Assembly: GCF_002854065.1 (NCBI RefSeq)
Contig: NZ_CP024147.1
DNA: 64,000 bases
Source of the DNA: Escherichia coli
GTDB taxonomy: Bacteria; Pseudomonadota; Gammaproteobacteria; Enterobacterales; Enterobacteriaceae
Strand: one strand, 5' to 3'
Part shown: piece by piece, positions 6,001 to 9,000 of the stretch
Layout of the letters: the number at the start of each line of letters is the position of its first letter
How positions within the stretch are numbered: the stretch's first letter is position 1
Made by a program: the position numbers

Positions 6001-9000
6001 GTTATAGCCGGTGACCGAATTATCCAGCGCCAGATACTCAACCTGTTGCAATACTGTATGTTGCGCATCGCGGTACTTTGGATTTTTGCGTGCAGTAATC
6101 TTTTCGTTAACTACCCACTGATCAAGCACAAAGGCACCGTTGTAAACCATGTTCTCTGGCTTACTTCAGCTATCGCCATGTTTAGCGATGACATGATGAG
6201 GAACCGGGAACAGCGTCGGCCAGGCGAGCATCGTCGTGAACCAAGGAACCGGCTGCTCAAGCGTAACTTCAAGAGTACGATCATCCGTCGCTTTGACACC
6301 CAGCGATGTAACATCTGCTTTACCCGCAACAATAGCCGCGGCATTGTTAATGTGCGCCTGTGCCAGATAGCCAGCAAAAGGGCTTGCCGTTTTCGGGTCA
6401 ACCGCGCGCTGCCAGCCGAGGACAAAATCCTCTGCCGTCAGAGGCTGACCGTCTGACCACTGCAAACCGCTACGCAGATGGAAAATATAGCGCCTGCCGC
6501 CGTCCAGTATCTCCCAGCGTTCAGCCTGAGCGGGCTGCACCTGGCCTTCACCGTCCATCCATACCAGACCTTCAAACAGATCCAGCACAATCTGCGCGGC
6601 AGTATTCTCCTCCACCTTTTGCGGGTCGAGCGTACCTGGGTCGCTATGATTGTTGTAACGAAAGACTTGTTGCGGAGCGAGCGGTGTGTTGGTGGGAACG
6701 TCAGCAGCGTAGAGAGGAGCCGCACTTACCAGGCTGACCAGCCATAATAAATTTCGCGTATACATGGTATTCCTTACCGGAGAAATTATAAGCCGAACAA
6801 CAATACGCCTGTGGCATTGTTCGCTCAAACTTATCGCGAGTGATTTGGCTCACACTCCGGTAAAGATTCCCCATCACGCTAACGGCACATAAACATCCGT
6901 TTCCAGTCGCTGCTCCGTCACCCCTTCGGCAAGATTGGTGTAGTGAAACAGAATCGGTGCTTTACGCATTTTCTCGCCGCTTGCAGGCAGCCAGTGGCGA
7001 ATAATGCCCCATATCGTGTGTGAAATATCGTCCAGCTCGCCAACGTGGCGGGCCACGGCATAACGTCCACCGGTAAGTTCACCATTACTCACACCATAAC
7101 GATTATCGGGAATCGGTTCGCTAACGCTGCCGCAGATATCAAAGCGAAACGCTTCTGGTGCGGTGGTGGCAGGGTCGTCCCAGGCGACGCCAAAAGTCTG
7201 GCTTTAGTTAACTGGAGAAAGCCCCGTCTCTTTACGCCACATGATAAATTTCGCCACGCTGTAGTTGAGCAACTCAGGGCTACAGCGGTGCGGCAACATC
7301 GCCACAGGGATTGATGGGAAATCGATAATGTTTACATCCAGTGTCAGGTTTGTCATTTTGCCTCCCTGCGAAATTATTCCCGGGAACGCATCCCGGGAGC
7401 GGTAACAATTACGGATTTACTTTGCGGATCTGTTTGACGTCAATTTCAACAGAATTCCAGTCTTTATCGACTTCACCCTGAATCTCAACCGTATCTTTCG
7501 GCGTCACCGTCACGCCGTTCCAGCGTTTGTGGTCGATATCAACATTGATAGTACCGCTGGCATCTTTGAACACGTAGAGATCGTCAGAGATGCGTTCAAC
7601 GATATTGCCGCGCAGGGTTACCCAGGTGTCGTCACGCAGGGATTTTGCGCTTTCTACAGTCGTTACGCTGCCGTTCGGCCCCTGGAATCCTCCGGCCTGA
7701 CTTTGCGTTGCCGATGGGCCAGAAAAACCGCCCTGCTCTGCTGCCATCACCGGTGCGCTGCACAGGGCCATTACTGCGATTACTGCTGCGAATTTTTTCA
7801 TGTTTATTACTCCCTTTAATGTCTGTTTCCGAGCATTTAACAAGATAGTCCTTAACAACTTCTTAAGGGAAAAAAATAAAATTTAGTGCTGTACAGAGCG
7901 CGTTACAACACGGTTTACTGGCAGCAAATACGGTTATCGCAGGGATGAAAAAATGCGAATTTTACTGATAGAAGATGACATGCTGATTGGCGACGGCATC
8001 AAAACGGGCCTTAGTAAAATGGGTTTTAGCGTCGACTGGTTTACACAAGGTTGTCAGGGAAAAGAGGCGCTTTATAGCGCACCTTATGATGCGGTGATCC
8101 TGGATTTAACCTTACCAGGCATGGATGGTCGCGATATTTTGCGCGAATGGCGAGAAAAAGGTCAGCGTGAGCCGGTACTGATCCTGACCGCGCGCGATGC
8201 GCTGGAGGAACGTGTAGAAGGGCTGCGTCTGGGAGCTGACGATTATCTGTGTAAACCTTTTGCGTTGATAGAAGTCGCCGCCAGGCTGGAAGCTCTGATG
8301 CGCCGAACCAACGGCCAGGCCAGCAACGAGCTGCGCCACGGTAACGTCATGCTCGACCCCGGCAAACGTATCGCCACGCTGGCTGGCGAACCCTTAATAC
8401 TGAAACCAAAAGAATTTGCTCTGCTGGAATTACTGATGCGTAACGCTGGTCGGGTACTGCCGCGCAAACTGATTGAAGAGAAACTGTATACCTGGGACGA
8501 AGAGGTCACCAGTAATGCCGTTGAAGTGCATGTGCATCATCTGCGACGCAAACTCGGCAGTGATTTTATTCGTACCGTGCATGGTATTGGCTACACATTA
8601 GGTGAGAAATGAAATTTACCCAACGTCTTAGTCTACGTGTCAGGCTGACGCTAATCTTTTTAATTCTGGCCTCGGTGACCTGGCTGCTTTCCAGCTTTGT
8701 CGCCTGGAAACAAACAACGGATAACGTCGATGAGTTGTTCGACACCCAACTGATGCTGTTTGCCAAGCGGTTAAGTACGCTCGATCTCAACGAAATCAAC
8801 GCGGCGGATCGCATGGCACAGACGCCAAATAAATTAAAACACGGTCATGTTGATGACGATGCGCTGACCTTTGCCATCTTTACCCACGACGGCAGAATGG
8901 TCCTTAATGATGGCGATAACGGAGAAGATATTCCCTATAGCTATCAACGGGAAGGTTTTGCTGACGGGCAACTGGTCGGTGAAGACGATCCCTGGCGTTT

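Follow-up and report, generated by a model that had tools for sequence, protein, structure and literature searches.

In the 64,000-nucleotide stretch of Escherichia coli DNA analysed here (contig NZ_CP024147.1; hereafter the window), ygiS is interrupted at codon 200 by an in-frame opal codon, and with high probability this is a genuine, vertically inherited loss-of-function allele, which arose when the ancestor of an E. coli lineage now sampled worldwide acquired a stop at Trp200. The ORF list and the translation place the gene in one frame of 536 codons on the minus strand (5158..6765), comprising 535 sense codons and a terminator, with its ATG at 6765 and its stop at 5158. The sole interruption of this frame is the TGA at 6168..6166, around which the minus strand reads ...CAT GGC GAT AGC TGA AGT AAG CCA GAG AAC ATG GTT.... 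Beyond the TGA the frame continues through five sense codons to an ATG at 6150 (Met206), which opens a 330-aa ORF (5158..6150, minus strand) that covers the C-terminal 62% of YgiS, lacks a signal peptide and is called by gene callers as a separate SBP_bac_5 protein, the exact remainder being found on 177 contigs. The sequence-only reading of this stretch had described two ORFs in a shared frame, separated by a TGA plus five codons and together spanning 535 codons, and each of these details, coordinates included, proved exact when set against the ORF list and the minus-strand sequence.

The pseudogene derives from an OppA/MppA-like orphan periplasmic substrate-binding protein, as judged from translation, Pfam, PDB matching and PGAP annotation. 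With Trp restored at codon 200, the protein matches Pfam SBP_bac_5 (PF00496) over residues 75-453 (E=2e-83), and its best PDB match is OppA 1b05 (E=2e-145), OppA and MppA being the closest solved structures; in the alignment a conserved OppA Trp stands opposite residue 200. The N-terminus is hydrophobic and the alignment to mature OppA (PDB 1b05, residue 1 = ADVP) begins at query residue 21, and residues 1-20 (MYTRNLLWLVSLVSAAPLYA; 6706..6765, minus strand) are presumed to be a signal peptide, which the 199-aa product would keep. A 1.8-kb query found a match in 5,425 of the 5,426 complete RefSeq E. coli genomes, where the matched region is annotated as ygiS, nucleotide identity to ygiS was 99.3-100% in 4,052 complete genomes, and the gene order parC-ygiS-ygiV-ygiW-qseBC is conserved. 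The intact YgiS of K-12 (b3020; WP_001295629.1) shares with the window the position beside parC, the 535-codon frame and the SBP_bac_5 domain, and the two genes differ at 11 nucleotides in 1,608, the stop included. Codon 200 is TGA in the window and TGG in K-12, whereas the mqsR-mqsA toxin-antitoxin pair, which lies between ygiV and ygiS in K-12, is absent from the window locus. Domain, near-identity and synteny are thus those of a YgiS orthologue, but the uninterrupted frame of ~535 aa is lacking; the TGA at codon 200 breaks it, and the locus is therefore a pseudogene of the YgiS family and not a functional member.

The nearest intact relatives, XJ34 (bovine, China) and GDSC2227PM (vegetable, China), carry a ygiS that differs from that of the window by one base in 1,608 nt and has TGG at codon 200, which excludes a chance pair of ORFs. 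TGG is present at this codon in five outgroups, namely XJ34, GDSC2227PM, Res13-Sevr-PER07-33, AHM8C212RI and a K-12 derivative, and a 61-nt query centred on the site found a perfect match in two of 4,014 complete genomes, the other 4,012 differing from the window there. The change was thus from TGG to TGA (6166..6168, minus strand), a G:C to A:T transition, just as the sequence-only reading had guessed; it is a G to A change on the coding strand at the third codon position, and a C to T change at window position 6166 on the plus strand. With a sense codon in close orthologues and the remainder of ygiS alignable in frame, the locus has the make-up of a nonsense pseudogene.

The identical TGA was found in two complete genomes, CUWW06 from wastewater in Thailand and 100416 from human stool in The Gambia, for which PGAP annotates ygiS as 'pseudo, internal stop' (ACNHKQ_RS19375 and ACU5SM_RS03520, respectively). 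Both pseudogenes have the TGA of the window, the ygiV TAA described below and the same gene order, and ygiS of CUWW06 is 100% identical to that of the window, with the same PGAP coordinates. Across 53.9 kb of collinear sequence the window differs from CUWW06 by 10 SNPs and from 100416 by 21 SNPs; unlike either, it carries a private qseC A161V change at 9090 and, beyond the tRNA at 53.9 kb, another island. In the collinear region of CUWW06, ygiS and ygiV are the only pseudogenes among ~63 annotated features. A total of 192 contigs (283 collection blocks) from NCBI, ENA, JGI and Logan encode exactly the 199-aa product; their length profile is typical of isolate assemblies, two blocks have contigs of more than 1 Mb, and the TGA is also present in a 276-kb human gut metagenome contig and in GCA_905134085.1. 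The allele is thus reproduced in independent assemblies, which include two complete genomes, metagenome contigs and ~190 contigs overall. A search for intact homologues that also end here, the case that the sequence-only reading had set against itself, left that reading standing, as the 330-aa remainder lies downstream of every sequence that stops at residue 199, either in frame with it or, in one instance, after a 2-bp deletion. With 10-21 SNPs per 54 kb among its members, the allele is older than the divergence of the clade, and at typical E. coli substitution rates its age would be, roughly, of the order of a century or more, so that it is fixed in the lineage rather than newly arisen.

A second in-frame stop, which the sequence-only reading did not record, lies in the neighbouring gene. 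ygiV (6874..7356, minus strand) is a pseudogene by translation and is annotated by PGAP as 'ygiV, pseudo, internal stop' in CUWW06 and 100416; its codon 51 (7204..7206, minus strand), which is CAA (Gln) in all relatives, is an ochre TAA in the window through a C to T change on the coding strand. Among complete genomes this TAA is found only in CUWW06 and 100416, the same two that carry the ygiS TGA, and when 24 long contigs carrying a truncated product were grouped by shared neighbours, every representative shown had both a split ygiV and a split ygiS. An intermediate genome with one stop only, by which the two hits could be ordered, was not found. Both stops occur together with mqsRA in one metagenome scaffold (L020), which may be chimeric or recombinant. 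Polarisation of the changes with XJ34, GDSC2227PM and Res13 assigned 20 fixed differences in 26.9 kb to the stem branch of the clade, of which 12, mostly synonymous, are packed into 20..2085, a cluster that is a probable recombination tract. The other eight stem changes are ygiS W200*, ygiV Q51*, qseC V374L, one further missense, three synonymous and one intergenic change. At least two nonsense changes in eight would arise by chance with a probability of ~0.04 if ~4% of random coding changes are nonsense, a figure of our own estimation that is post hoc and weak, and with the clustered tract included the nonsense share of the branch is 2/20. A promoter and terminator scan of 4900..8000 returned no more sites than shuffled sequence and is uninformative on co-transcription of ygiV and ygiS or on polarity.

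The course of events that we favour would begin with one spontaneous G:C to A:T transition, which turned TGG into TGA in the ancestor of the lineage. Translation would then end after 199 residues, within the SBP_bac_5 domain (75-453), leaving the signal peptide and part of one lobe and losing ~63% of the protein. An exported fragment of 199 residues without most of both lobes and the hinge would not be expected to form a closed, two-lobed ligand-binding fold, and would probably be unable to bind ligand or to dock on and work with an ABC permease. The 330-aa remainder, if translated by re-initiation at all, would stay in the cytoplasm, since it has no signal peptide. Loss of YgiS function is thus predicted from the fold. 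The same or a close ancestor would also have gained the ygiV nonsense mutation; with a nonsense mutation in both genes, the whole ygiV-ygiS segment would be dead in this lineage. In E. coli, UGA is the stop codon most prone to read-through, with tRNA-Trp as the near-cognate reader. Rare read-through would recreate wild-type YgiS, and W200* may therefore act as a very strong hypomorph and fall short of a complete null. Apart from the stop, ygiS is undecayed in the clade, with one extra substitution in 100416 (window position 6224) and one in a further locus (L014), a state that fits a young pseudogene and would also fit residual function.

The window allele is one instance of a wider pattern. 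Three architectures of the locus were seen, namely the K-12 type (ygiV-mqsR-mqsA-ygiS-parC), the window type without mqsRA, and a type without ygiS; in ~1,340 of the 5,426 complete genomes only the last 36-42 nt of ygiS are left, and ygiV is followed directly by parC. The species thus does not require ygiS, which roughly one in four complete genomes has deleted; it is an accessory, dispensable gene that has been repeatedly lost in E. coli. These whole-gene deletions (~25% of genomes) have the same outcome as W200*, in that YgiS is lost. Nonsense alleles at other codons were confirmed by reading the loci: TGA at W217 gives a split of 216 + 297 aa, in 515 collection blocks and 10 complete genomes, and at W182 both TAG and TGA occur, at loci that have mqsRA and at others that lack it. 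Like W200*, the W217 and W182 alleles convert a Trp codon to a stop by a G-to-A transition and leave two ORFs in the same frame; unlike W200*, they lie at other codons and on other haplotypes, with ygiV intact and often with mqsRA present.

Codon 200 itself carries stops on at least five haplotypes, some of which have mqsRA and some of which do not. In L021 and L023, which are K-12-like, have mqsRA and keep ygiV intact, the codon reads TGA, as it does in L026 and L027, two divergent haplotypes without mqsRA; another haplotype (L019) has TAG, and in a further case (L025) a 2-bp deletion creates TAG there. As a control, stops were placed at ten other Trp or Gln codons of the K-12 allele, and the resulting N-terminal products were looked up. 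All ten were present in the collection, on 17-365 contigs each, and four of them (W84*, W118*, W182* and W217*) occurred on contigs longer than 4 Mb; W200* on the K-12 allele was found on 22 contigs only. A mutational hotspot at codon 200 was rejected on this basis, as the control truncations were all present too, at similar or higher counts. As a negative control, prefixes of ParC, which is essential, and of TolC were sought, and nine of ten were present, all on contigs of <=95 kb and under 'partial' names; these are genes cut at contig ends, and only matches on long contigs therefore count as real stops. Thus ygiS as a whole gathers independent nonsense alleles, and that of the window is one of several that have spread.

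Other accounts of the TGA may be weighed against this background. The interruption is a single-base substitution, and the sequence-only reading, which could not exclude an error, had left the choice between 'a recent pseudogene' and a sequencing error. That the true base is G, the codon TGG and ygiS intact now has a negligible chance of being right, as the same base was called in two complete genomes from different continents, each sequenced independently, in the 276-kb gut contig and in GCA_905134085.1, as the product is encoded on ~190 contigs (283 collection blocks), and as the TGA is always linked in this lineage with the TAA of ygiV. The pseudogene half of that choice therefore stands and the error half falls, and the word 'recent' needs qualifying, the three clade members being 10-21 SNPs apart in 54 kb with an allele that predates their divergence. 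A base-calling error at a methylation motif was considered separately and rejected: the ancestral GCTGGAG is not a Dcm site (CCWGG), the context of the ygiV site, AACCAAAG, is unrelated, and the allele occurs in assemblies from many different projects. If the base is real, the UGA could in principle be recoded, being read as selenocysteine or efficiently as Trp to give full-length, functional YgiS. Read-through by tRNA-Trp at a leaky UGA would restore the wild-type residue, and a hairpin of -20 kcal/mol (z = -1.97) spans the codon. That hairpin, however, only marginally beats shuffled sequences, 9 of 200 of which fold as well, and the U-A pair at the mutated base would have been G-U in the ancestor, so that the hairpin was not created by the mutation. 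ygiS shares with fdhF-type selenocysteine recoding an in-frame UGA inside a coding sequence, but it is not a selenoprotein-family gene, its ancestral codon is an ordinary TGG for Trp rather than a codon for Sec or Cys, and neither a SECIS nor any other Rfam match was obtained in 5000..7500, even at E<=10. The TAG and 2-bp deletion found at codon 200 in other strains, and the stops found elsewhere in the gene, moreover form a plain knock-out pattern, and programmed recoding is highly improbable. It is likewise extremely improbable that ygiS has become a split gene, with the 199-aa and the 330-aa product each being synthesised and the two coming together as a functional binding protein. An ATG does stand five codons past the stop, and gene callers do report both ORFs, but the second product would lack a signal peptide and the two parts would lie in different compartments, the sequence ahead of the Met206 ATG (CCAGAGAAC), read directly, has no clear Shine-Dalgarno, and the split is limited to one shallow clade, an intact single chain being the norm.

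The alternative that inactivation of ygiS, and perhaps of ygiV, was positively selected and drove the spread of the clade, for example through deoxycholate uptake, differs from the inherited loss-of-function allele favoured here in its evolutionary cause alone, the molecular mechanism being the same. According to PMC6918082 and PMC10846083, which both cite Kwan et al. 2015, YgiS reportedly promotes import of the bile salt deoxycholate and sensitivity to it, and MqsR is proposed to lower ygiS mRNA in bile stress. An mBio study of 2019, on the other hand, found deoxycholate tolerance unaffected by mqsRA and warned of possible polar effects on ygiS from the mqsRA deletion used earlier (PMC6918082). 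Deletion of ygiS leaves negamycin susceptibility unaffected (PMC8097410), and the YgiS transporter is still listed as uncharacterised (PMC10971958). The repeated loss of ygiS, by deletion and by several independent nonsense alleles, some of them widespread, would suit positive selection, as would the presence of truncated parC and tolC only as contig-end partials and the two nonsense changes, in adjacent genes, among the eight unclustered stem substitutions. Repeated loss is, however, equally expected of a neutral, dispensable gene in a very large sample, and the statistic of two in eight is weak and post hoc. Adaptive loss in this clade is therefore possible, though unlikely. We hold it somewhat more doubtful that YgiS loss has been convergently selected in gut E. 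coli at large, as the deletion in about a quarter of genomes and the many Trp-to-stop alleles, some of them widespread (W200* in this lineage and W217* in a larger one), might suggest. Were this true, cells that lose a deoxycholate importer would tolerate bile better, the knock-out would, in lineages without mqsRA, take the place of post-transcriptional control of ygiS, and the ygiV stop linked to it would either have hitch-hiked or be a second hit in the same functional module. Most simply, W200* is a tolerated, possibly mildly advantageous lineage marker.

The allele as such is already known, through the RefSeq pseudogene annotation and the fragments in GenBank, and is an ordinary, lineage-specific loss of a dispensable gene. 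In practical terms, the annotation of this genome should list both ygiS and ygiV as pseudogenes, and the pair of stops conveniently marks a single E. coli lineage, which has been sampled from humans and from wastewater on two continents or more. YgiV is GyrI-like and, when amplified or over-expressed, traps albicidin and cystobactamid, poisons of gyrase and topoisomerase IV (PMC10414762, PMC11721078); if this literature holds, the Q51* lineage would be unable to gain resistance to these compounds through amplification or up-regulation of ygiV. Similarly, if the reports in PMC6918082 and PMC10846083 hold, the lineage should be without YgiS-dependent deoxycholate uptake, and the repeated loss of ygiS in E. 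coli could be used to test whether bile selects against the importer.

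The gene that adjoins ygiS, ygiV (6874..7356, minus strand), which encodes a GyrI-like albicidin/cystobactamid-binding protein, was found to carry a nonsense change of its own, an in-frame TAA at codon 51 (7204..7206, minus strand) in place of the ancestral CAA. The ygiV of both sister genomes, CUWW06 from Thai wastewater and 100416 from Gambian stool, was labelled 'internal stop' by PGAP, and in all long contigs examined the ygiV stop was inherited together with the ygiS stop. In K-12, the mqsR-mqsA toxin-antitoxin pair lies between these two genes; in contrast, the pair is absent from the intergenic region of the window (6766..6873). 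Both stops, ygiV Q51* and ygiS W200*, occur alongside an mqsRA insert on an ENA metagenome scaffold (ROBE23-1), where the 5' half of ygiS is K-12-like. This scaffold arose either by recombination in nature or by chimeric assembly of the metagenome.

Twelve of the 20 differences specific to the clade formed by the window and its two sister genomes cluster in window 20..2085, covering the end of ygiQ, ftsP and plsC. Since these differences are clustered and mostly synonymous, the sequences point to a probable imported recombination tract at 20..2085, acquired on the stem branch of the clade. The sensor kinase gene qseC (plus strand) carries two missense changes, at window positions 9090 and 9728; V374L (9728) is common to the clade and A161V (9090) is private to the window, being found in neither CUWW06, 100416 nor two metagenome contigs. 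Strain 100416 also has a stop of its own, changed from TGG to TGA, in ttdT, the tartrate/succinate antiporter gene, labelled 'internal stop' by PGAP, while the codon at the equivalent position of the window (46561) is intact.

The mdaB-qseC interval of the window lacks ygiZ, in contrast to some other strains such as EC21, where the gene is present. Genes for a siderophore ABC transporter, a TonB-dependent receptor and an RpiR-family regulator occupy 11039..18231, between ygiN and parE. Further along, two direct repeats of approximately 357 nt each and 90.8% identical (32769..33124 and 33144..33500) coincide with the pair of Ibs type I toxin genes annotated there (the ibsD/ibsE region). Collinearity with the two sister genomes ends at about 53913, just past a tRNA gene at 53824..53899 (Met-CAT by ARAGORN; annotated as tRNA-Ile by PGAP), beyond which the window has a different island. 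This island encodes, all on the minus strand, a RadC-family protein (56850..57326), an Ag43 autotransporter (59063..61984) and a GTPase (62280..63191), and its small ORFs gave no NCBIfam match. The arrangement resembles that of a CP4-type island which has integrated at the tRNA gene.

Across the species, roughly one in four complete E. coli genomes has no ygiS at all, and in these ygiV directly adjoins parC. Independent Trp to stop alleles of ygiS, at codons 217 and 182, were identified in other E. coli lineages (loci L029-L033). The W217 TGA allele was present in 10 complete genomes and in 515 blocks of the contig collection searched for truncated products, and W182 stops occurred in both TAG and TGA versions, at loci with and without mqsRA.
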